Source: a virus
DNA length: 64,000 bases
IMG/VR virus record: IMGVR_UViG_3300005466_000025
Span: 38,757 to 102,756 of that record
Reading direction: 5' to 3' (one strand)
A program made the position numbers and the translations under genes. Position 1 is the first letter of the stretch, and each line of letters starts with the position of its first letter. This document shows, one piece after another, positions 45,282 to 63,907 of this stretch. The notes under the pieces are model-generated. The model made no database searches, was not told the origin of the DNA, and saw only the letters and a program-made list of their open reading frames with translations.

Positions 45282-45620
45282 GGGGCCGAACAGGTTTCGA
45301 CGGATAGACGGAGTGAACAGTTTGCATCGGTTTGAGACACCTTAATCTCACGGTAGAAAATAAATGCAGATAATACATCTGACCTGACTGTTTCTAAGTC
45401 TCGCTTCGGCGCAGCATTTAGAACCGCAACAGTCGCAGTCGCTTAACACTGGTCAACACAAGTTAAGCTGGCGCTCCCGGAAACGGGGCAAAGAAATACT
45501 CTTTCTTAGTTTAAGACGAAACTAAGTGGTGGACCTGATCGCACCAACGGTCGCCCCCAAGATGCTCAAAGAATTGTTTGCAAAGCTAGACGGACCCGAG
45601 TTCGATTCTCGGCGGCTCCA
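45282..45620 (+). ncRNA. ssrA: tmRNA
   Basis: 5' GGGGCCGAACAGGTTTCGAC; 3' T-arm CCGAGTTCGATTCTCGG + CGGCTCCA; G3:U70; resume context ATAAAT-GCA; tag ADNTSDLTVSKSRFGAAFRTATVAVA* at 45366-45446; TGATATACT promoter upstream. Confidence 0.92.
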
Positions 45621-55018: not shown

Positions 55019-55100
55019 GCGCGAGTGGTGGAACGGTATACACACTAGGCTTAGAACCTAGCGCCCTCCGGGATTGTGGGTTCGACTCCCACCTTGCGTA
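55019..55100 (+). tRNA. tRNA-Leu(UAG)
   Basis: cloverleaf, CTAGG-CTTAGAA-CCTAG. Confidence 0.9.
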
Positions 55101-55105
55101 CTTAT

Positions 55106-55179
55106 GCCCCTCTAACCCAATTGGTAGAGGTATCCGGTTTAAGCCCGGTCAAGTGAGAGTTCGAATCTCTCGGGGGGTA
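55106..55179 (+). tRNA. tRNA-Leu(UAA), short variable arm
   Basis: cloverleaf, 74 nt. Confidence 0.9.
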
Positions 55180-55184
55180 CTAAT

Positions 55185-55268
55185 GTCGATCTGGTGAAAT
55201 AGGTAGACACGCTAGCTTGAGGGGCTAGTTCCAGAAATGGAGTGCGGGTTCGACTCCCGCGTTCGACA
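55185..55268 (+). tRNA. tRNA-Leu(GAG)
   Basis: CTAGC-TTGAGGG-GCTAG, long variable arm. Confidence 0.9.
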
Positions 55269-55375
55269 CTATGAAATTAATGACGTTACAGCAAGCACAA
55301 GCTATGAAAATTGCAGAATTTAATTCCCTTTTTAAGGACGTAATTTTCACAGCAAAACGCGGCGGAATTAAATTT

Positions 55376-55453
55376 GCATCTTAGCCCAAGGTGGGCACGG
55401 TGGCTGTAACCCACCCGTCTAAGACATGGTAGGTTCGATTCCTACAGGATGCA
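55376..55453 (+). tRNA. tRNA-Tyr(GUA)
   Basis: GGTGG-CTGTAAC-CCACC. Confidence 0.85.
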
Positions 55454-55461
55454 CTTAAATT

Positions 55462-55857
55462 ATGAAGAATAACATCATCATCCTCACGCTTGTTGGAATA
55501 ATTGGATTGATGGCTGTTATCACAGTTTATTCCCTGACAAGTAAGACGGAAAAGGCACCAAAGGTTGCCAGGATAACAACATCATCAACCACAAGGGAAA
55601 TTAATAAGTTCTTTAGCAATGCGAGTGTTGAAGTTGTATCTAATCAAGTTGTTTGGAGTCTTAACAAGACTGATCTATTGGAGGAGACGGCATATGCGGC
55701 GGCTCGGGCGGATACTAAGGTGGAGAAGATTGGCTTTAGGAAATACTTTTTGTCCCAAGGCGGTGTAATCTATAGACAAGTGTGCTATAATCTACATGCG
55801 TTTGATGAGGCATGGTCGCTAGGATATTGTGTACATAGGAATATAGAGAAGGGTTAG
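55462..55857 (+). CDS. membrane-anchored hypothetical protein
   Basis: N-terminal TM. Confidence 0.6.
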   Translation: MKNNIIILTLVGIIGLMAVITVYSLTSKTEKAPKVARITTSSTTREINKFFSNASVEVVSNQVVWSLNKTDLLEETAYAAARADTKVEKIGFRKYFLSQGGVIYRQVCYNLHAFDEAWSLGYCVHRNIEKG

Positions 55858-55859
55858 AA

Positions 55860-55922
55860 ATGGAATTCGGTCTGTTGGGTCTTATATTACTTATCATCAT
55901 TATCGTTTTAATTGTAAGATAA
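55860..55922 (+). CDS. 20-aa hydrophobic peptide MEFGLLGLILLIIIIVLIVR
   Basis: GAAGGG RBS, single TM. Confidence 0.4.
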   Translation: MEFGLLGLILLIIIIVLIVR

Positions 55923-55925
55923 CAC

Positions 55926-56013
55926 GGAATGGCAAGCCGATGGTTGGCGACGGCACTCCCCTGCTAAGGGAGCGAGCTTAAAAGCCTTGTGGGATCGTTC
56001 CCCACCCTTTCCG
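55926..56013 (+). tRNA. tRNA-Ser(GCU)
   Basis: CTCCC-CTGCTAA-GGGAG, long arm, atypical T-loop. Confidence 0.85.
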
Positions 56014-56016
56014 CTC

Positions 56017-56367
56017 ATGAGAAGAATATTAGATAATATAGCCATCATATTCTTGGTGATTGTTGTCACAGGTGGCTTTATCTATTCCTTATATCAGGGT
56101 TTCTTTGAGGATACAGGGGCGAGGGCCAGATTGGCTATCTCAAATAATATCAAATCCTGTCAGGATAACATAGCCAAGGCCGTTGTGTTTGAGCAGTTCG
56201 CTAGGGAGGCCGCAGCCGCCAGACGTGCCCAGGCTGCCGCTGATTTTAAAGCGGGAGATGAAATCTCAGCCAAGAATAATCTTGCCACGGCGGAACGCTA
56301 TGAGTCCTTCGCTCATCAATGGGATGTATTGACAGTTAAGGACTGTCGTAAGGAATACGGAGGCTAG
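56017..56367 (+). CDS. membrane-anchored hypothetical protein
   Basis: ATG just after the tRNA; TM + two Cys like the 24832/25166 proteins. Confidence 0.6.
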   Translation: MRRILDNIAIIFLVIVVTGGFIYSLYQGFFEDTGARARLAISNNIKSCQDNIAKAVVFEQFAREAAAARRAQAAADFKAGDEISAKNNLATAERYESFAHQWDVLTVKDCRKEYGG

Positions 56368-56411
56368 TAAGGATTTTGTAAGGCCCTCTTTTTTTGTGCT
56401 ATACTCCTATC

Positions 56412-56822
56412 ATGATACGACTGAGAAGCGAGAAGGGACAGGGCGATGTTGGTTTCGTCCTCGCAATCGGATTCGTTGCAGTCATTGTTCTTGTAGGTTT
56501 TGTTACCCTTCTATTTGGAGCTAAGGCTTATTCCAGATATCAGAAGAGGGCTGACGCCGAAAACCAAGTTAAGGTGACGGCAATTCAGATCAGGAACCAG
56601 GAACAGCGAGTCAAGATTGCACAGCAGAAGGCGCAGATTAGATATCAGGAGGCAATTGGTATTCGTCGCGCCCAGGATGAAATTGCAAAGACCCTGAATA
56701 GAAACTATCTTACACACGAATATATTCAGGCTCTTAGGGAATCACATGCAACAACTGTTTATATCCCGACTAGCCCGACAGATGGACTTCCCGTTGTAAC
56801 AACAAGAAACGCAGGAGACTAA
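56412..56822 (+). CDS. membrane protein, SPFH/band-7 C-terminal-like, leaderless
   Basis: TM, EAIGIRRAQ..I..TL...YL, VYIPT..GLPV. Confidence 0.65.
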   Translation: MIRLRSEKGQGDVGFVLAIGFVAVIVLVGFVTLLFGAKAYSRYQKRADAENQVKVTAIQIRNQEQRVKIAQQKAQIRYQEAIGIRRAQDEIAKTLNRNYLTHEYIQALRESHATTVYIPTSPTDGLPVVTTRNAGD

Positions 56823-56827
56823 ACAGC

Positions 56828-56850
56828 AAGGCCCCCTTCCGGGGGCCTTA
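56828..56850 (+). terminator. GC hairpin terminator
   Basis: AAGGCCCCC-TTCC-GGGGGCCTT. Confidence 0.6.
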
Positions 56851-56904
56851 ACTGTCGCGGGATGAGCTACCAAAAGCATTATACCAATATGGTATAATGA
56901 TTAT

Positions 56905-57900
56905 GTGAGATTAACCGTAGGAAGTTTGTTTAGTGGATGTGGCGGATTAGATTTGGGAATGGAAAGGGCTGGATTCGACACCATATGGATGTGCGAAAAC
57001 GACAAATGGTGCAGGAAGATTCTGAACAAGAATTGGCCTGGTATTCACTTATACGAAGACGCGAATACGTTCATGCCAGACTCGGTAGACATATTGATTG
57101 GTGGATTCCCGTGTCAGCCAGTGTCATTCGCAGGGAGAAGAAATGGAGTTGATGATCCTAAATGGCTATGGCCCGCTTATGAAAGAACCATTCGCAATCT
57201 TCGACCCAGATACGTTATCGTGGAAAACGTACCCGGACTCTTCAGACACGGATTCGATGAAGTTCTCGGATCGTTGGCCCTACAGGGGTATAATGCTGAA
57301 TGGTTCAGTCTACAATCTTCAGACATTGGAGCGCCCCACAGACGAAAAAGAGTTTTTATTCTTGCTACCAACTCCGGTAGCCTGGGACTCAGGAAGGACA
57401 ACAAAGGCCCATCTGGCAAACAAGGCAAAGCTAGGGGAAGGGAGAAAAATGATTACTTCCCTCAACGTCTTAGTGAGGAATCAATTTCAGCAGCCGCTCT
57501 TGCCGACACCGTTAGTGGACGATTCAAAAAACGGCAAAAGGGGTGGGAGTTACAACTCATTGAGTCGGAGCGTGATTCTGTTGCCAACTCCGACAGCAAA
57601 TATGAGTACAGGGCCGGGAGGATTCAAGGTACGCGGGGGCAAGAATTTGCAGACAGCGATTTCGGAAATTACGCAGAGGCTATTAGACGATGGTCTGAAC
57701 TCAATGGACTCCCTCCCGCCCCAAGAGACGAGCAAGGAAGAATGAGTCCCTACTTCGTTGAATGGATGATGGGATTCCCTGAGGGATGGACAGAAGGTGT
57801 ATCGAAAACACAGCGGCTAAAAATGCTAGGTAATAGTGTTCAGGTTCAATGCGCCCAGGTTGCAGGGAACCTCATAAGAGAGAAGGTTAAGAATGAGTAA
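56905..57900 (+). CDS. DNA cytosine-5 methyltransferase
   Basis: motif I SLFSGCGG, IV GGFPCQ, VI ENV, VIII RKRVF, X LGNSV. Confidence 0.92.
   Translation: MRLTVGSLFSGCGGLDLGMERAGFDTIWMCENDKWCRKILNKNWPGIHLYEDANTFMPDSVDILIGGFPCQPVSFAGRRNGVDDPKWLWPAYERTIRNLRPRYVIVENVPGLFRHGFDEVLGSLALQGYNAEWFSLQSSDIGAPHRRKRVFILATNSGSLGLRKDNKGPSGKQGKARGREKNDYFPQRLSEESISAAALADTVSGRFKKRQKGWELQLIESERDSVANSDSKYEYRAGRIQGTRGQEFADSDFGNYAEAIRRWSELNGLPPAPRDEQGRMSPYFVEWMMGFPEGWTEGVSKTQRLKMLGNSVQVQCAQVAGNLIREKVKNE
57143..57745 (+). CDS. alternative-frame ORF nested in the methyltransferase (LLPTP repeats)
   Basis: 200 codons open in the +1 frame, GGGAG RBS, SWKT..WP..G.M.NG and three LLPTP units. Confidence 0.65.
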   Translation: MELMILNGYGPLMKEPFAIFDPDTLSWKTYPDSSDTDSMKFSDRWPYRGIMLNGSVYNLQTLERPTDEKEFLFLLPTPVAWDSGRTTKAHLANKAKLGEGRKMITSLNVLVRNQFQQPLLPTPLVDDSKNGKRGGSYNSLSRSVILLPTPTANMSTGPGGFKVRGGKNLQTAISEITQRLLDDGLNSMDSLPPQETSKEE

Positions 57901-58126
57901 ACAATTTCTAACAATCGGGGAGGTTTCAAAACAAGTTGGTAGAGTATCCCACACCATAAGACAGTGGGAGAGGGACGGCCGTCTGCCTCCAAGACTTCTT
58001 CCCTCAAGGGATGAGAATGGATGGAGGGTTTGGACGGTAGATCAGGTTGAGGAACTAAAGGTTTGGATAGAGAAGGAGGACCTTCGCCCAGGCAAGGCAC
58101 TTCCATACAATAATAAGGAGAAATAA
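57893..58126 (+). CDS. MerR-family HTH protein
   Basis: LTIGEVSKQVG..TIRQWERDG...RDENGWR. Confidence 0.85.
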   Translation: MSKQFLTIGEVSKQVGRVSHTIRQWERDGRLPPRLLPSRDENGWRVWTVDQVEELKVWIEKEDLRPGKALPYNNKEK

Positions 58127-58354
58127 ATGAGTAGCAGCACAACAACTGCTAGTTCAGGAGTGAGTCTAGGGTTTCTTGAATTCCTGACGCTCATCTTCAT
58201 TACCCTAAAACTAACTGGTTATATTGACTGGTCATGGTGGTGGGTTCTGTCTCCACTGTGGGCACAGCTAGTTGTCTTTGTAATCGCCCTTATAACAGTT
58301 CTGTTGTATGCGGCTGGAAGTATCAAGAGAGGAAAAGCAGATGGCATCAGATGA
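58127..58354 (+). CDS. small membrane protein
   Basis: FITLKLTGYIDWSWWWVLSPLW, a common phage membrane motif. Confidence 0.75.
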   Translation: MSSSTTTASSGVSLGFLEFLTLIFITLKLTGYIDWSWWWVLSPLWAQLVVFVIALITVLLYAAGSIKRGKADGIR

Positions 58355-58556
58355 GGCACTAGATACATTCACATTCACAGTTGAGGAGAAAATTGGACTT
58401 AAGGATTATTCAAACATCCTAGTTCGGGCCTCCCTGTCCAGACAGATTCCCGACGATGAGGATGCACGCAAGGATGTTATCAATATCGTGGAGAATATTC
58501 TGGTAATGGAGCGTCGTATTGTCCTAGAGGACCTAGGGGTAGAAGTAAAGTCTTAG
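58341..58556 (+). CDS. hypothetical protein
   Basis: GAGGA RBS. Confidence 0.55.
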   Translation: MASDEALDTFTFTVEEKIGLKDYSNILVRASLSRQIPDDEDARKDVINIVENILVMERRIVLEDLGVEVKS

Positions 58557-58599
58557 TAAAGTCGCCCCACAGGGGCAGAATCTTTGCTATAGTTCTTGG

Positions 58600-58672
58600 T
58601 GCGCGTTGGAGAAGCGGTTACCTCGCAAGCTTCATAAGCTTGAGAACCCTGGTTCGAATCCAGGACGCGCTA
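58600..58672 (+). tRNA. tRNA-Met(CAU), initiator-like
   Basis: 1:72 mismatch, A11:U24, but lacks the three G-C anticodon pairs. Confidence 0.8.
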
Positions 58673-58673
58673 C

Positions 58674-58703
58674 TTGACAAGGGACGGTGAAGTATGCTAC
58701 ACT
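58674..58703 (+). promoter_or_regulatory. sigma70/SigA-type promoter for the main tRNA array
   Basis: TTGACA-N18-TACACT with extended TG. Confidence 0.7.
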
Positions 58704-58754
58704 TTGTCGAAATGGGGATACGTCCCCGAGAAACTTGACAACTTAGTAGGTCAT

Positions 58755-58828
58755 CTGGATGTAGGAAAGCTTGGCAATCCGTCTGCTTTGGGAGCAGAAG
58801 ACCGCTGGTTCGAATCCAGCCATCCGGA
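58755..58828 (+). tRNA. tRNA-Pro(UGG)
   Basis: cloverleaf, G37. Confidence 0.9.
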
Positions 58829-58945
58829 CTGTTGCGACTAATCTAGATACGTCGCAATCGTGAGTGGTGACCCGTTAATTCACCACCGTTACCCAATAGG
58901 CGTTGTATTGGGGGTGCCCCCGCCTACCAAAATGTGGGGTATTAT

Positions 58946-59020
58946 CTGGGTGTAGCTCAGCTTGGTCAGAGTAATCGCCTTGGACGCGAGAAGTCGCAGG
59001 TTCGAATCCTGCTGCCCAGA
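58946..59020 (+). tRNA. tRNA-Pro(UGG), A37 variant
   Basis: cloverleaf, loop CTTGGAC. Confidence 0.85.
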
Positions 59021-59025
59021 CTGGA

Positions 59026-59071
59026 AGCAACTGTGTGGATACGTAAAAGTGTTGCTGAAAGTAAGTCCACA
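59026..59071 (+). ncRNA. nested-pseudoknot spacer RNA, copy 1
   Basis: P1 AGCAAC/GTTGCT, P2 TGTGGAT/GTCCACA, P3 AC/GT. Confidence 0.5.
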
Positions 59072-59075
59072 ACCC

Positions 59076-59151
59076 GATGGTATAGTGAAGTCAGGCCTAT
59101 CACGTCTCCCTGTCAAGGAGAAGAACACGGGTTCGAATCCCGTTATCATCG
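59076..59151 (+). tRNA. tRNA-Asp(GUC)
   Basis: cloverleaf. Confidence 0.9.
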
Positions 59152-59220
59152 CTAAAGAGAGTCCCTTCGATCCCTGGACGGACGCGCGCCTAGAGGTAAG
59201 ACGCAATACTCTCTTAACTA

Positions 59221-59292
59221 GCAGCAATAATTCAGTGGTAGAATGTCTGCTTGCCAAGCAGAATGTCGTGAGTTCGAATCTCACTTGTTGCT
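59221..59292 (+). tRNA. tRNA-Gly(GCC)
   Basis: cloverleaf. Confidence 0.9.
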
Positions 59293-59375
59293 CTTATCTG
59301 CCTAAGTCAGTCCTCGGCGTATGGCGAGAGGAATATGGGAGCCTGGAACCCATAGGTAAAAAATGCACGGCAAAT

Positions 59376-59447
59376 GAGTCGGAAGTATCTGGTGATATCC
59401 CTGGGCTGTGACTCCGGGCGGGTAGGGTTCGATCCCCTAACGACTCT
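59376..59447 (+). tRNA. tRNA-His(GUG), atypical
   Basis: GTG anticodon and T-arm present; no clear G-1:C73. Confidence 0.6.
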
Positions 59448-59517
59448 TAGTGGTTCATGCCTTGCCTGCAAGGGCGGAAAGAACGGATACTACAAGGCCC
59501 GTCACCACTAATTTTAA

Positions 59518-59590
59518 GCTTCCTTATTGTTAATGGTTAGCAAACGTGCCTTCCAAGCATGGAGTGTCAGTTCAAATCTGACAGGAAGCT
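59518..59590 (+). tRNA. tRNA-Gly(UCC)
   Basis: cloverleaf. Confidence 0.85.
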
Positions 59591-59595
59591 CTCAA

Positions 59596-59668
59596 GTCTC
59601 TATAGCTCAGTGGAAAAGAGCAACGGGTTTCTACCCCGTGAGCCTAGGTTCGAATCCTAGTAGGGACT
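59596..59668 (+). tRNA. tRNA-Arg(UCU)
   Basis: cloverleaf. Confidence 0.9.
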
Positions 59669-59791
59669 CTGTGAATAAGATTCGGCGCAGGGCGTACCTT
59701 GGCGCGGCAACAGAACAAGTGCGGGACTTACCGGGAAGTACAAGCAACTAGGCGAGACGGCGCTGAACGGGAGAAAGTCCCTCCCAAATAT

Positions 59792-59866
59792 GGAACATTA
59801 GCTAAAATGGACAAAGGCACCTGGCTCTTAACCAGGAGATTCTAGGTTCGATCCCTAGATGTTCCA
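59792..59866 (+). tRNA. tRNA-Lys(CUU)
   Basis: cloverleaf. Confidence 0.9.
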
Positions 59867-59868
59867 CT

Positions 59869-59966
59869 TTATTAACTCCCTGGATGGGTATCTGGCTCGA
59901 AACCAGTGTAATAAGAAATGGTGTTCTCCGCGGAACGTAGAGAGTTCGATTCTCTCCGGTTGATAA
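59869..59966 (+). ncRNA. tRNA-like RNA, CGA (Ser) loop, abnormal D and variable regions
   Basis: terminal stem, CTGG-CTCGAAA-CCAG, canonical T-arm GAGAG-TTCGATT-CTCTC. Confidence 0.55.
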
Positions 59967-59971
59967 AACTT

Positions 59972-60045
59972 GCCCCTCTAGCCCAATTGGCAGAGGCACG
60001 GCACTCAAAACGCCGACAGTCTGAGTTCGAATCTCAGGTGGGGTA
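59972..60045 (+). tRNA. tRNA-Leu(CAA), short variable arm
   Basis: cloverleaf, 74 nt. Confidence 0.9.
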
Positions 60046-60047
60046 CT

Positions 60048-60299
60048 ATGAAACACCTAATGAAATTTGAAGCTGATTGGTGTGGCCCATGTCATGCCAT
60101 TAGACCGCTAGTTGAAAAGATTGCGGATGAGAATGAACTAGATATAGTGGTGGTTGATATTGATAAGGACAGTGACGTTGCCACCCTGTATGGAGTCGCC
60201 TCAATTCCAACAATCATTTTGATTGAGGATGGTTCAGAAGTAGCAAGGCATATTGGTTCCGCGCCAAAATCCACAATAGAAAAGAACTTGAATTTATAG
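60048..60299 (+). CDS. trxA: thioredoxin
   Basis: WCGPC, SIPT. Confidence 0.92.
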   Translation: MKHLMKFEADWCGPCHAIRPLVEKIADENELDIVVVDIDKDSDVATLYGVASIPTIILIEDGSEVARHIGSAPKSTIEKNLNL

Positions 60300-60374
60300 A
60301 CTAGTACGCCCTCTGGCTGATAACCAGTTGAAAGGCTATGCGGATACAAAATGGTTCGAATCCATTCTAGTCTA
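60298..60374 (+). ncRNA. D-armless tRNA-Ile(GAU)-like RNA
   Basis: AGACTAG/CTAGTCT acceptor, CTGG-CTGATAA-CCAG, T-arm; only 8 nt where the D-arm should be. Confidence 0.65.
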
Positions 60375-60450
60375 CTGGGTAAGGAATTTGTTAAAAAGGG
60401 TCGATTCCCACCCCAAACTTGAAATCTTGTGCTATAATCCTTAGCACACA

Positions 60451-60587
60451 AGGGGAGATATGGGTTAAACTGTATCTTCCCACCATGCCTCTCACAGTCT
60501 TACGGCTGTCAGAGGCTCCTGGCCCCCAGTACCCTAACGGGGAAAAGGGCAGCCTGGAAGGAGAGGGGTAAAAGCCTCTCCTTCCCC
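60451..60587 (+). ncRNA. unknown multi-hairpin RNA downstream of a TGCTATAAT promoter
   Basis: GGGAGATAT/GTATCTTCC, GCCTCT..ACAGTC/GGCTGT..AGAGGC, GGAAGGAGAGG/CCTCTCCTTCC. Confidence 0.45.
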
Positions 60588-60594
60588 CAAACTT

Positions 60595-60667
60595 AGGCAA
60601 TTAGCTCAGCCGGGAGAGCGCCGTTCTTACAAATCGGAGGCCGGGGGATCGAAGCCCTCATTGCCTA
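60595..60667 (+). tRNA. tRNA-Val(UAC)
   Basis: cloverleaf, T-loop ATCGAAG. Confidence 0.85.
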
Positions 60668-60671
60668 TCAA

Positions 60672-60743
60672 GTCAAAGTGACCGAGCGGATAGGTATGAG
60701 TCTGCAAAACTCATTCACGCTGGTTCGAATCCAGTCTTTGACT
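60672..60743 (+). tRNA. tRNA-Cys(GCA)
   Basis: cloverleaf, U73. Confidence 0.9.
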
Positions 60744-60776
60744 CTTCCTTTTCCTAGGATAAAAAGGAGGTACCAT

Positions 60777-60869
60777 ATGACAGCAATTAAACCAGGAAAG
60801 CTTTCGACACTTACTGTCGCCTGGACTCCGACCTGGACCGCTAATTGGTCGCCAGTCTGGTCAATGTAA
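60777..60869 (+). CDS. 30-aa Trp-periodic peptide
   Basis: AAAGGAGGT RBS; MTAIKPGKLSTLTVAWTPTWTANWSPVWSM. Confidence 0.6.
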   Translation: MTAIKPGKLSTLTVAWTPTWTANWSPVWSM

Positions 60870-60960
60870 GTCAAGAGATGGGTTAGGTATTTTCTAGATA
60901 AATCCAGCATTCAAGGCCGCGCCTTTGCCTAACGAGGGAAGTAAAATGCGGTCAATAAAT

Positions 60961-61032
60961 GGGGCTGTAAGCTAATCAGGAAACTACCTGCTTTGCACGC
61001 AGGAATACGGGGAGCATAACCCCGCCGCTCCA
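60961..61032 (+). tRNA. tRNA-Ala(UGC)
   Basis: G3:U70, TGC anticodon, atypical T-loop AGCATAA. Confidence 0.8.
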
Positions 61033-61033
61033 C

Positions 61034-61086
61034 TCCCTTCAAGTAGAGATACCAAGTGATCATGGTGAGGGAAACTAAAGTCTCTA
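61034..61086 (+). ncRNA. nested-pseudoknot spacer RNA, copy 2
   Basis: P1 TCCCTT/GAGGGA, P2 TAGAGAT/GTCTCTA, P3 ACCA/TGGT. Confidence 0.55.
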
Positions 61087-61091
61087 TACAT

Positions 61092-61163
61092 TCCAGCTTG
61101 GCGCAAAGGTAGCGCAATCGGCTGTTAACCGAGAGGTTCTAGGTTCGAATCCTAGAGTTGGAG
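61092..61163 (+). tRNA. tRNA-Asn(GUU)
   Basis: cloverleaf. Confidence 0.9.
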
Positions 61164-61235
61164 CTAGCGGAGGGGCATATGGACAGACTCCGTATGTTAA
61201 ATGAGGGGCGTATCGCCCCCGCCCCAATGCCACAT

Positions 61236-61307
61236 TCCTCAGTAGCTTAGTAGTAGAGCAGCAGTCTCATAAGCTGTAAGGCAATGGTGCAACTCCATTC
61301 TGAGGGA
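61236..61307 (+). tRNA. tRNA-Met/Ile2(CAU)
   Basis: GCAGT-CTCATAA-GCTGT. Confidence 0.8.
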
Positions 61308-61341
61308 CTATATTGAACCACAGCTTGTGTTATAATATAGC

Positions 61342-61650
61342 ATGAGCAAGCAGGCAGAATATTCGTCTAAATGGTACAATAATAATAAGCAGTTGCAGAA
61401 GCAAAGAGTTGACAGTAGAAGAAGGGAAATGACCCAATTTCTGTTCTCTCTAAAGAAAAATAAGAAGTGTGCGTTCTGTTCAGAGAGTGAGCCAGCTTGT
61501 CTAGACTGGCATCACACTAGAGATAAGATCGTAGATGTAAGTCAGATTCCAAAGATGGGTTGGGGTAAGGAGAAAGCATTAGAAGAAATTTCAAAGTGCA
61601 TTCTTGTTTGCGCCAACTGTCACAGGAAACTACACGCCGGATTAGTTTAA
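61342..61650 (+). CDS. HNH endonuclease, leaderless
   Basis: CAFC..CLDWHH..KCILVCANCHRKLH; last codons overlap tRNA-Thr. Confidence 0.85.
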   Translation: MSKQAEYSSKWYNNNKQLQKQRVDSRRREMTQFLFSLKKNKKCAFCSESEPACLDWHHTRDKIVDVSQIPKMGWGKEKALEEISKCILVCANCHRKLHAGLV

Positions 61651-61707
61651 CTGGTAAAACACGACTCTTGTAAAGTTGTGAACAGGGTTCAAGTCCTTGA
61701 TTCGGCT
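61636..61707 (+). tRNA. tRNA-Thr(UGU)
   Basis: GCCGGAT/ATTCGGC, CGACT-CTTGTAA-AGTTG. Confidence 0.85.
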
Positions 61708-61708
61708 T

Positions 61709-61732
61709 AGGGTTCGATTCCTAGACGTGGCT
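61709..61732 (+). pseudogene. orphan tRNA 3' fragment (T-arm + acceptor strand)
   Basis: GGTTCGATTCCTAG-ACGTGGC-T. Confidence 0.55.
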
Positions 61733-61827
61733 CTTATGCTATAATGTTCCCTTAGGCTCCTAGCTCCTAAAATTGGACGTGAGCCTACGCGCAGGTAAAG
61801 GCATGGCGTAACAGATGCCTTGTGTTT

Positions 61828-61901
61828 GCACCTTGGCAGGCCGGTTGTTTGGAGGTATCTTATAAGTATCTTTAAGCTTGGTTCGACTCCAAGAGGGTGT
61901 A
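61828..61901 (+). tRNA. tRNA-Ile(UAU)
   Basis: GCACCTT/AGGGTGT, GGTAT-CTTATAA-GTATC, canonical T-arm. Confidence 0.75.
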
Positions 61902-61904
61902 TAA

Positions 61905-62072
61905 ATGGAATATACAAAAACACAGTGGGAGTCATTCCCGACAACAAAGGATGCGGAAGTTATTTCATGCCAGTATTGTGAGAACGAAACTGTTGTGAAA
62001 GCTAACAAATTCGTAACACGGTACACATGTCCTACGTGCTATAGTGTACCTAAGTTAAGCAAGCGCAAGTAA
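61905..62072 (+). CDS. 55-aa zinc-ribbon protein
   Basis: CQYC...CPTC. Confidence 0.55.
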   Translation: MEYTKTQWESFPTTKDAEVISCQYCENETVVKANKFVTRYTCPTCYSVPKLSKRK

Positions 62073-62075
62073 CAT

Positions 62076-62146
62076 GGCCCTATCGTCTAATGGTAGGACG
62101 GGTGCCTTTCAAGCATCTAACCGGGGATCGTAACCCCGTAGGGCTA
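62076..62146 (+). tRNA. tRNA-Glu(UUC)
   Basis: cloverleaf, T-loop ATCGTAA. Confidence 0.85.
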
Positions 62147-62150
62147 CTAA

Positions 62151-62222
62151 CGCTCATTAGCTCAACGGAAAGAGCATTGGTCTTCGAAACCAAGAGTGAA
62201 GGTTCGATTCCTTCATGGGCGT
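62151..62222 (+). tRNA. tRNA-Arg(UCG)
   Basis: TTGGT-CTTCGAA-ACCAA. Confidence 0.85.
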
Positions 62223-62377
62223 CTGGCAGGAAGTCACATTTAAGTTGAAGTGACTGATAGTAGATGAAGATGGAAGATGGAGGTAGAAGTAGTACAGTCG
62301 TAGTTCTGCATCATCGACTTCCTGCCAATTTGTTTGGTGGACCGGGACTCCTGGGTAAGAGTAAAAACTGCCCAATA

Positions 62378-62449
62378 TCCTCCGTAGCGTACTGGCAGCG
62401 CACACGCCTTTTAAGCGACGAGGACAGGGTTCGATTCCCTGCGGGGGGA
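62378..62449 (+). tRNA. tRNA-Lys(UUU)
   Basis: cloverleaf with a weak anticodon stem. Confidence 0.8.
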
Positions 62450-62450
62450 C

Positions 62451-62503
62451 TGGCGAAGGTGTCGTTCGAATCGACTATGGTGTAACCTGGAAGCACATCG
62501 CCA
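62451..62503 (+). ncRNA. circularly permuted tRNA-elbow mimic (T-arm before D-arm, Y-RNA/YrlA-like)
   Basis: TGGCGA/TCGCCA closing stem; GTCG-TTCGAAT-CGAC; GTGT-AACCTGGAA-GCAC. Confidence 0.6.
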
Positions 62504-62578
62504 TGAATCCATGCGACGGCATGGGGGTACCAGGGTATCTGGTTGTTCGTCGGGGTCAACCTTAATCAATCCGACCAT

Positions 62579-62650
62579 TTCTCAGTCGTCTAATTGGCAG
62601 GACAGCGGACTTTGAATCCGCGAATCTGGGTTCGAATCCTAGCAGAGAAA
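62579..62650 (+). tRNA. tRNA-Gln(UUG)
   Basis: cloverleaf. Confidence 0.9.
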
Positions 62651-62717
62651 CTACACCCCTCCGAATGGGTCATAGACTAGTCCGGCTACCCCTGAAATAG
62701 AGCCGGGAGGGGATCAA

Positions 62718-62790
62718 TGCTTCTTAGCTCAGAGGATAGAGCGCGTCCCTGCGAAGGACGAGGCCATAGGTTCGATTCCTATAGGGGCAA
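62718..62790 (+). tRNA. tRNA-Arg(GCG)
   Basis: CGTCC-CTGCGAA-GGACG. Confidence 0.85.
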
Positions 62791-62791
62791 T

Positions 62792-62995
62792 ATGATAATT
62801 AAATTAGGACCAATAGTGATTATGGATTCCAAGACAAGGGAGGCCTATAGGGAACTCCTAACAGAGGCATATTTGGTTCATCAAAATATTTGGTTTTCAC
62901 AGGATTGGGCGCAATCTGAGCAGGAAATTAAGAATGCAGATTCCCATCTTTCTGAAGCAATTTCACATGTACCAGCAAGTGAATTAGAAATTTAG
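62792..62995 (+). CDS. hypothetical protein
   Basis: ATG 2 nt after the tRNA, 67 aa. Confidence 0.5.
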   Translation: MIIKLGPIVIMDSKTREAYRELLTEAYLVHQNIWFSQDWAQSEQEIKNADSHLSEAISHVPASELEI

Positions 62996-63348
62996 AGTGG
63001 AAGACTTGTGCGGCGGAATTCCAACACCGTCGAGGAAGTTCGGGCCACATGAATGCGCTAGACTTGCGAGGAGGCGCAGGAAACGAGCAGAAAAAGTGGG
63101 AGCGGTCGTAAGCTAACGATGGGAAACCGGGAGAAATAGCTGGCCGCGCCTTACCACAAATTCGTCGGTGTGTAACCTCAAGACGCCCTTAGTCTAAGGG
63201 GCATGGTAGAGGGCAGCTAATAATTTAGCCATATGGAGTCATAGTGTCCCTTCTCTACGAAGGTGGTAAGCCCTGAGGTCACGTACAGGCGCTCCATATG
63301 AGACAGATGCAAGTCCACGACAGAATCCCGGCTACGAAACTCTAAATT
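62989..63348 (+). ncRNA. rnpB: RNase P RNA (ribozyme)
   Basis: P1 AATTTAGAGT/ACTCTAAATT; P2 GACTTGT/GCAAGTC; P3; CR-I GAGGAAGTTCGGGC; P4 pairing with CCCGGCT; L15 GGT; CR-IV AGACAGATG; CR-V ACAGAATCCCGGCTA. Confidence 0.88.
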
Positions 63349-63399
63349 AACAAAATATTGACCTACTAAGTTGAAATTTGTGTTATAGTAATCAAACAC

Positions 63400-63470
63400 A
63401 GGCTGTTGGTGTAACAGCAGCATGAACGGCTCCAACCCGTTTGGCGAGGGTGCAAATCCTTCACGGCCTG
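63400..63470 (+). tRNA. tRNA-Trp(CCA)
   Basis: cloverleaf, G73; promoter TGTTATAGT upstream. Confidence 0.85.
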
Positions 63471-63510
63471 CTAGTCCTTGGCCCCCGGACTTTTAAAATA
63501 GGGGCAACAT

Positions 63511-63584
63511 GTTGATGTAGCTCAGCTAGGTAGAGCATTCGGTTGAAGCCCGCAAGGTCACAGGTTCGAGTCCTGTCGTCAACA
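63511..63584 (+). tRNA. tRNA-Phe(GAA)
   Basis: cloverleaf, G37. Confidence 0.9.
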
Positions 63585-63589
63585 CTCTT

Positions 63590-63662
63590 GTTCCATTGGT
63601 CTAACGGTCAGGACGCCGCCCTCTCAAGGCGGAGGCTATGGGTTCGAATCCCATATGGAATA
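63590..63662 (+). tRNA. tRNA-Glu(CUC)
   Basis: cloverleaf. Confidence 0.9.
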
Positions 63663-63671
63663 TGAGGCAAG

Positions 63672-63743
63672 TAGGTTGTGGTGTAATGGTTAGCACACCG
63701 GGGTTTGACCCGGAGGAGCCGCGTTCGAATCGGGTCAGCCGAA
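63672..63743 (+). tRNA. degenerate tRNA (UUG-like, 6-nt anticodon loop)
   Basis: D-arm and T-loop intact; CCGGG-GTTTGA-CCCGG; mismatches in acceptor and T stems. Confidence 0.5.
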
Positions 63744-63809
63744 AGCTTCAACTAAAAGAGTAAATTTCGGGATTTAACTACTCTTTCAAAAAACTTTTAA
63801 ATCCCACTT

Positions 63810-63881
63810 TCCACAGTCGTCTAACGGGTAGGACGCTGGACTCTGAATCCAGTAATCTAGGTTCGAATCCTAGTAGTGGAG
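63810..63881 (+). tRNA. tRNA-Gln(CUG)
   Basis: CTGGA-CTCTGAA-TCCAG. Confidence 0.9.
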
Positions 63882-63907
63882 CTAACAGCCGGATGAATGT
63901 AAGTAAT

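Follow-up and report, generated by a model that had tools for sequence, protein, structure and literature searches.

The methyltransferase locus

The window, by which we mean the whole 64-kb stretch of DNA that was analyzed, is the final part of a 102,756-bp virus record that has direct terminal repeats and recurs across many rhizosphere metagenome runs. A phage DNA polymerase, a ribonucleotide reductase, and a portal protein are encoded in it. The window also carries 31 tRNA genes and one tmRNA gene, located at positions 45282-45620 and 55019-63882, and one of the tRNA calls (63672-63743) has an odd two-base anticodon. A C5 cytosine methyltransferase gene, hereafter alpha (56905-57900, forward strand), sits within the tRNA array, between two tRNA clusters; it is the sole match to PF00145 in the whole genome, and no restriction endonuclease gene was recognized beside it. 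A megablast search of the locus against phage records returned no match, and a scan of viral contigs with a single sequence found nothing.

Upstream of alpha there is a perfect palindrome with 10-bp arms, CATTATACCA-TAT-TGGTATAATG (56877-56899), which overlaps an extended -10 element (TGGTATAAT) and ends 6 nt ahead of the GTG initiation codon. The same inverted repeat was classed as terminator-like on the minus strand in the repeat listing, and a strong hairpin (56827-56850) lies between it and the upstream gene. In one RNA run, coverage was confined to 56700-56814, that is, to the upstream gene. For the palindrome together with the extended -10 element, we infer a possible function as operator and promoter. 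No Shine-Dalgarno sequence is visible before the GTG of alpha, and its absence, with the palindrome lying over the extended -10 element, suggests that the methyltransferase transcript is either leaderless or controlled by an operator. At the other end of the gene, an ORF of 77 aa (57893-58126) overlaps the methyltransferase stop codon by 8 nt and encodes a MerR-like helix-turn-helix protein (best NCBIfam E value 3.8e-8, under the cut-offs), which may be a regulator that binds the palindrome upstream of alpha.

The outer gene encodes a complete C5 cytosine methyltransferase

Alpha is a GTG-start ORF of 331 aa that matches PF00145 over residues 4-321 (E value 4e-51, 174.8 bits against a cut-off of 22) and TIGR00675 with 139.2 bits (cut-off 100.65). 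The motifs follow in order: motif I, FSGCGG (aa 9-14), PCQ (69-71), ENV (107-109), RRKR (146-149), a motif IX-like region (283-296), and GNSV (309-312). The outer frame is thus a complete C5 methyltransferase with all of its catalytic motifs intact. The motif IX-like region, YFVEWMMGFPEGWT (57751-57792, placed by alignment A3 and the architecture table), and motif X, LKMLGNSVQV (57817-57846), are found in the outer frame only; the IX-like stretch is located past the stop codon of the nested gene described below, while in most relatives it is found in the nested frame instead.

In the AlphaFold2 model, residues 1-158 are well folded, with block means of pLDDT of 66-94 except for residues 70-80 of the catalytic loop, and their fold resembles those of M.HaeIII and M.HhaI; the predicted large domain superimposes on M.HaeIII (1dct) with an rmsd of 2.0 over 166 columns. 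Residues 257-331 reach a pLDDT of 60-83. Between them, the linker of residues 159-256 (57379-57672) has a pLDDT below 50 at each residue and is predicted to be disordered. Solved methyltransferases align with residues 1-156 and weakly with 282-320, and none of them aligns with 159-256. A folded small domain for target recognition was not found between motifs VIII and IX within alpha, and since the linker is both predicted to be disordered and unaligned to the solved enzymes, alpha appears to have no recognition domain of its own. The linker is open in the outer frame and reads as an uninformative shadow of the coding in the nested frame: identity to relatives is 15% in the alpha frame versus 33% in the beta frame. 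The sequence-only reading had described this variable region as low in information and as a mirror of the repeats in the nested frame, and the identities and the pLDDT values bear this out.

At 57742-57745 the TGA stop codon of the nested gene overlaps an ATG of the outer frame (ATGA), which is Met280 of alpha. This codon lies three codons ahead of the motif IX-like stretch and is not conserved in the Gordonia phage Gudmit. The configuration could permit termination and reinitiation, giving a small IX-X peptide.

A nested gene in the +1 frame

The +1 frame is open from a TTG at 57098 to 57745, and its first ATG, at 57143, gives an ORF of 200 codons (57143-57745, forward strand), hereafter beta, that lies entirely inside alpha. 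This ATG is likely to be the start of beta. A Shine-Dalgarno-like GGGAG (57133-57137) stands 5 nt ahead of it, the nearest homologue (P0001) begins with M-E-L at the equivalent position, and in three of the related loci (L023-L025) the start of the homologue falls at the corresponding point. Beta had no match in Pfam or NCBIfam and was instead assigned to the PHROG family phrog_1008 and aligned with twenty database homologues (P0001-P0020). The nested ORF of 200 codons, its ribosome-binding site, and its three LLPTP units had been pointed out from the sequence in advance, and that description was correct in every particular.

Beta carries the N-terminal module of its family, F-D-P-x-T-x-S-W ... 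W-P-x-x-G-x-M-x-x-G, in the +1 frame over motifs V-VIII of alpha, followed by the LLPTP region (57362-57592), which the alignments suggest to be recognition-like. The three LLPTP units are encoded at 57362-57376, 57497-57511, and 57578-57592. The first of them opens a conserved module of about 45 aa (H-L-A-x-K ... I-T-S-L-x-V-L), and the later ones are short and variable. In the outer frame the same bases are read as LATNS, LADTV, and VANSD, a mirroring that follows from the arithmetic of a one-base offset.

Two segments of the overlap are informative in both frames. The first (57143-57372) encodes motifs V-VIII of alpha and residues 1-77 of beta, and relatives share 45% of its residues when it is read as alpha and 35% when it is read as beta; with four predicted strands, these 77 residues of beta are proposed to be a docking module. 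The second (57646-57745) encodes two predicted helices, the one that precedes motif IX in alpha (NYAEAIRRW...) and the C-terminal one of beta (NLQTAISE...).

Both reading frames are under selection

We then asked whether the two frames are both maintained for reading, using synonymous shuffles in which one protein was kept fixed and the other frame was scored. When the outer codons 66-156 were shuffled, only 15 of 300 sequences had no stop codon in the +1 frame. Scored against a profile of the database homologues of the nested protein, the real +1 translation over motifs V-VIII gave 87.7 bits, versus 29±9 bits (maximum 51.7) in 300 synonymous shuffles, and with the closest homologue removed from the profile it still gave 75.6 bits versus 22±9. 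In the converse case, in which the nested codons 91-215 were shuffled, the outer frame was open in only 1 of 2000 shuffles, with a mean of 5 stop codons; the third frame has 11 stop codons across the same codons. From these odds of openness, both frames are selected for reading. Such selection is evidence that a frame is translated and says nothing of what its product does.

The test over motifs V-VIII was extended to 15 related loci and gave the same result in 13 of them. In the negative control, a viral contig that encodes a true single-chain relative (L008), the +1 frame has 4 stop codons and gives no signal. We also considered the ERPT encoded over GAPH as a universal signature of the +1 frame and rejected it, as it is present in just 2 of the 15 loci. 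Contigs from three other rhizosphere metagenome runs showed neither indels nor substitutions in the gene, and an assembly frameshift is ruled out by the absence of indels in these three independent runs.

These results bear on the alternative that the nested ORF is a relic or a by-product, either a shadow cast by the outer frame and codon bias or the remains of a decaying, frameshifted single-chain gene. The outer frame does force part of the pattern, as the shuffled sequences still score about 29 bits and the ENV motif imposes W-K/R-T in the +1 frame, but the real score lies more than 6 standard deviations above the shuffles. Against the same alternative, both frames are kept open against odds of 1 in 2000, the single-chain control behaves as expected, and the sequence is identical in several metagenomes. 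In addition, among 20 distant phage loci that were fetched, with GC contents of 42-69%, 18 have a +1 frame that is open and homologous to beta, placed exactly +1 to motifs I-VIII. This alternative is therefore already largely refuted here, and we consider it to be scarcely probable. In contrast, the comparative and statistical evidence argues strongly for dual coding, and the earlier proposal of dual coding is sustained by the shuffle tests and by the 18 loci, which mark the nested frame as real and conserved.

Relatives of the nested gene

A tblastn search with beta matched 115 phage records, mostly of Mycobacterium, Gordonia, and Streptomyces phages, with 27-34% identity. Ten named host groups account for 112 of the 115 records, and no Bacillus phage is found among these groups. 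A profile search for the beta family returned 14,071 cluster representatives (counted at 50% identity) at E≤1e-3 and 5,272 at E≤1e-10. Pattern scans were made with the narrower alignments A2 and A6, as the sequences in A1 were too diverse for them. In an alignment of 105 family sequences, the one from the window and its 104 top-scoring homologues, a Pfam methyltransferase domain was present in one sequence. In the ESM Atlas only clusters of viral hypothetical proteins matched, and no relevant account of LLPTP or of nested methyltransferase genes of phages turned up in the literature searched.

Beta matches positions 50-215 of phrog_1008, annotated as "DNA methyltransferase", with an E value of 7e-18, and alpha follows on from there with its C-terminus at positions 214-313, so that phrog_1008 joins a beta-like sequence with a motif IX-X sequence. 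The family thus mixes beta chains of the type of phage Corndog with pieces of two frames, and its label hides the nested layout. Among its members are the actinophage "DNA methylase" genes (Corndog gp6/gp7 and Gudmit gp58), which are homologues of beta with 27-34% identity and appear in annotations either as a single gene or as two neighboring ones; the number of units and the boundaries differ among them. The nested frame is unannotated in Gudmit as well as in the Acinetobacter phage vB_AbaM_ABMM1. In ABMM1 (L003, 1275-2189), a methyltransferase gene of 304 aa holds a +1 ORF of 298 aa that begins 4 nt past the main ATG, such that one ribosome site may serve both. To judge from the sequences compared, the nested layout appears to be common in phages and yet unannotated.

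The relatives follow three layouts. In Corndog, alpha ends after motif VIII and beta consists of the repeats followed by motifs IX and X, as in M.AquI. In the most common layout (ABMM1, L004-L012, and L023-L025), both frames are open over nearly the whole gene, with the IX-like stretch in beta and motif X in alpha, as in M.EcoHK31I. In the third, shared by the window and Gudmit, beta ends before motif IX, and motifs IX and X are both in alpha. Single-base indels within the doubly open region seem to have reassigned the distal motifs between the chains, a change that would be harmless if the chains associate anyway; fragment complementation has been documented for C5 enzymes (PMC3404938).

In two relatives that are read as single chains, the viral contig L008 and the chromosome of Dactylosporangium (L021), the core module of beta (LLPTP, H-L/M-A-M-K, I-T-S-L-A-V-L-A-R) lies in frame between motifs VIII and IX, which is the position of the target-recognition domain. 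The earlier suggestion of target-recognition-like repeats in the nested frame is thus supported. The L021 locus of Dactylosporangium roseum (1854-2501) looks like an intermediate form, in which the outer frame has five LLPTP units followed by motifs IX-X, and a short +1 ORF over motifs V-VIII encodes the docking module and one LPTP unit (48.9 bits versus 8.7±6.9 in shuffles).

These single-chain relatives also give substance to the possibility that one polypeptide is made from the window gene by two programmed frameshifts, +1 after motif VIII and -1 before motif IX: when the frames are joined on paper, the product has motifs I-VIII, a recognition region, and motifs IX-X, as in L008 and L021. 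Delivery by frameshifting had been offered before as one route. However, neither a +1 site nor a -1 heptamer that could serve was found, and the longest homopolymer has 6 nucleotides; a shift at the sole heptamer of the nested frame, A_AAA_AAC at 57526, would bring the ribosome into the spacer and cost the product its third LLPTP unit. Openness of the outer frame across the spacer is selected (1 in 2000 in the shuffles), although a frameshift product could do without it. Beta, for its part, is preceded by a ribosome site of its own, and its start is the one seen in P0001 and L023-L025. Moreover, the points of return to the outer frame vary among relatives, and Corndog never returns; placing motifs IX and X on either chain would be easy for chains that associate and hard for a fixed frameshift. 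Finally, a 2016 review of recoding has no DNA methyltransferase among the cases it describes. We therefore regard the frameshift route as very unlikely.

Predicted structure of beta and of the alpha-beta complex

Modeled alone, beta has a mean pLDDT of 60 and a pTM of 0.28; four N-terminal strands and two helices reach a pLDDT of 72-84 and the remainder is low. A Foldseek search with this model returned no match to solved structures. Matches to designer Kelch proteins in a profile search of the PDB were discarded as spurious, as they covered only the Y-D-P-x-T-x-x-W hairpin. Since beta folds poorly when alone and has no match among solved structures, its proposed recognition role rests on position and homology.

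The sequence-only reading had proposed a structure prediction of the heterodimer, and the one that we ran lends support to binding: the model of the alpha-beta complex scored 0.87, and the best of three controls scored 0.02. Of 80 solved complexes, 58 reach this mark, as do 2 of 110 mismatched pairs; the counts hold only roughly, since we supplied alignments of our own for each chain. The runs agree in at least 46% of the contacts, and the pLDDT of the partner is at least 54. The tightest contacts in the model are between residues 47-54 of beta (YRGIMLNG) and 129-134 of alpha (YNAEWF), which are encoded by the same bases. In addition, beta contacts residues 138-150 and 248-326 of alpha through its LLPTP units and its C-terminal helix, and residues 248-289 of alpha touch residues 168-183 of beta, which brings the helix before motif IX against the C-terminal helix of beta. 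The model supports the binding of alpha and beta without showing it, and its score could partly reflect a memory of single-chain methyltransferases.

A further alternative is that beta is translated and acts as a regulator or adaptor, or in an unrelated phage function, with alpha methylating alone at a relaxed specificity. All of motifs I-X are united in alpha, which is not so in M.EcoHK31I or M.AquI, and beta is poorly structured alone, as would suit such a role. On the other hand, the core module of beta is found in frame at the recognition position of single-chain methyltransferases, it is fused to motifs IX-X in Corndog gp6 and in the homologues P0016 and P0018, and alpha has a mere disordered spacer where the small domain belongs. 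In our judgment, a beta with no part in recognition is unlikely.

Comparison with known two-chain enzymes

To our knowledge, M.EcoHK31I is the only enzyme for which a beta chain nested in the other frame of alpha has been shown experimentally. It is a heterodimeric C5 methyltransferase from E. coli HK31 that recognizes YGGCCR (Lee, Kam and Shaw, 1995, via PMC2836561 and PMC3404938); its alpha chain has motifs I-VIII, motif X, and the recognition domain, its 61-aa beta chain has motif IX only, and activity requires both chains (PMC2836561; PMC3404938). The window gene resembles it in that a second polypeptide is inscribed wholly inside the alpha gene in another frame. It is set apart by the published layout, as here it is alpha that has motif IX, and a beta of 200 aa that has the docking module and the recognition-like repeats, whereas most relatives (L003-L012 and L023-L025), with motif IX in beta, are nearer to M.EcoHK31I. 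Since the nesting is common to both and the division of labor is reversed, the gene is not a plain member of the M.EcoHK31I type. Of the enzyme of this type that had been proposed from the sequence, the two chains stand as the best reading, but the division of motif IX and recognition differs.

M.AquI (CYCGRG) is a C5 methyltransferase of two subunits, the small one of which carries motifs IX-X (PMC3404938). It is naturally split after motif VIII in the variable region, and Corndog gp7/gp6 is divided likewise. The genes of M.AquI are not nested, unlike the window gene, in which motifs IX-X are in alpha and beta lies wholly inside it.

Arrays of recognition domains within one polypeptide have also been described (PMC12707154). 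The enzymes of the type found in Bacillus phages SPR and phi3T are, like that of the window, orphan C5 enzymes of phages whose variable region contains repeated elements. They are, however, single chains with several unlike recognition domains, whereas here short homologous LLPTP units are on a separate chain, and no similarity to Bacillus phage enzymes was seen among the ten named host groups of the tblastn search (112 of 115 records). The multispecificity that had been suggested as possible for the window enzyme is unsupported, as the LLPTP units are homologous short repeats, from 0 to 10 per relative, and not tandem domains that are unlike one another.

Discussion

Two polypeptides, a catalytic alpha with motifs I-X and a separate beta for recognition, are in our opinion the best reading of this locus, and a likely one. 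Under this two-chain reading, two overlapping genes would encode one orphan phage C5 cytosine methyltransferase. Alpha would provide the large domain (motifs I-VIII), a disordered spacer of about 98 residues, and then motifs IX and X, and beta would be made separately from its own ribosome site and the ATG at 57143. The N-terminal hairpins of beta would dock on the strand of alpha that is encoded by the same bases, and its LLPTP region would occupy the place that the small target-recognition domain has in single-chain enzymes, and beta would set or enable the recognition of the sequence. What we infer is thus a probable two-subunit mechanism, in the production of alpha and beta, in their binding, and in the recognition role of beta alike.

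We also entertain, as a doubtful extension, that each LLPTP unit is a DNA-reading module on a subunit acting in trans, where the number of units (0-10 in relatives) and their sequence would set the length or identity of the methylated site, with the docking hairpins overprinted on the very strand of alpha that they bind. If this were true, thousands of "short" phage Dcm genes that now carry the annotation of a single gene would be two-chain enzymes, and a change of beta could bring a change of specificity.

Among the main ways in which phages escape host restriction are orphan cytosine methyltransferases, and why many of these are so short, with no recognition domain in sight, is a puzzle. Should the part for recognition be a separate protein read from the +1 frame, annotation pipelines would be missing a whole family (14,071 cluster representatives), and predictions of specificity made from the annotated protein alone would be wrong. 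Among bacterial viruses, the case would also be one of the longest and most widespread of same-strand dual coding. A natural experiment is built into it, as motifs IX and X fall on one chain or the other depending on the relative; in the variant that the window adds, all ten motifs stay with alpha and only the recognition-like part is left to beta, which would make it the cleanest case for testing the role of beta.
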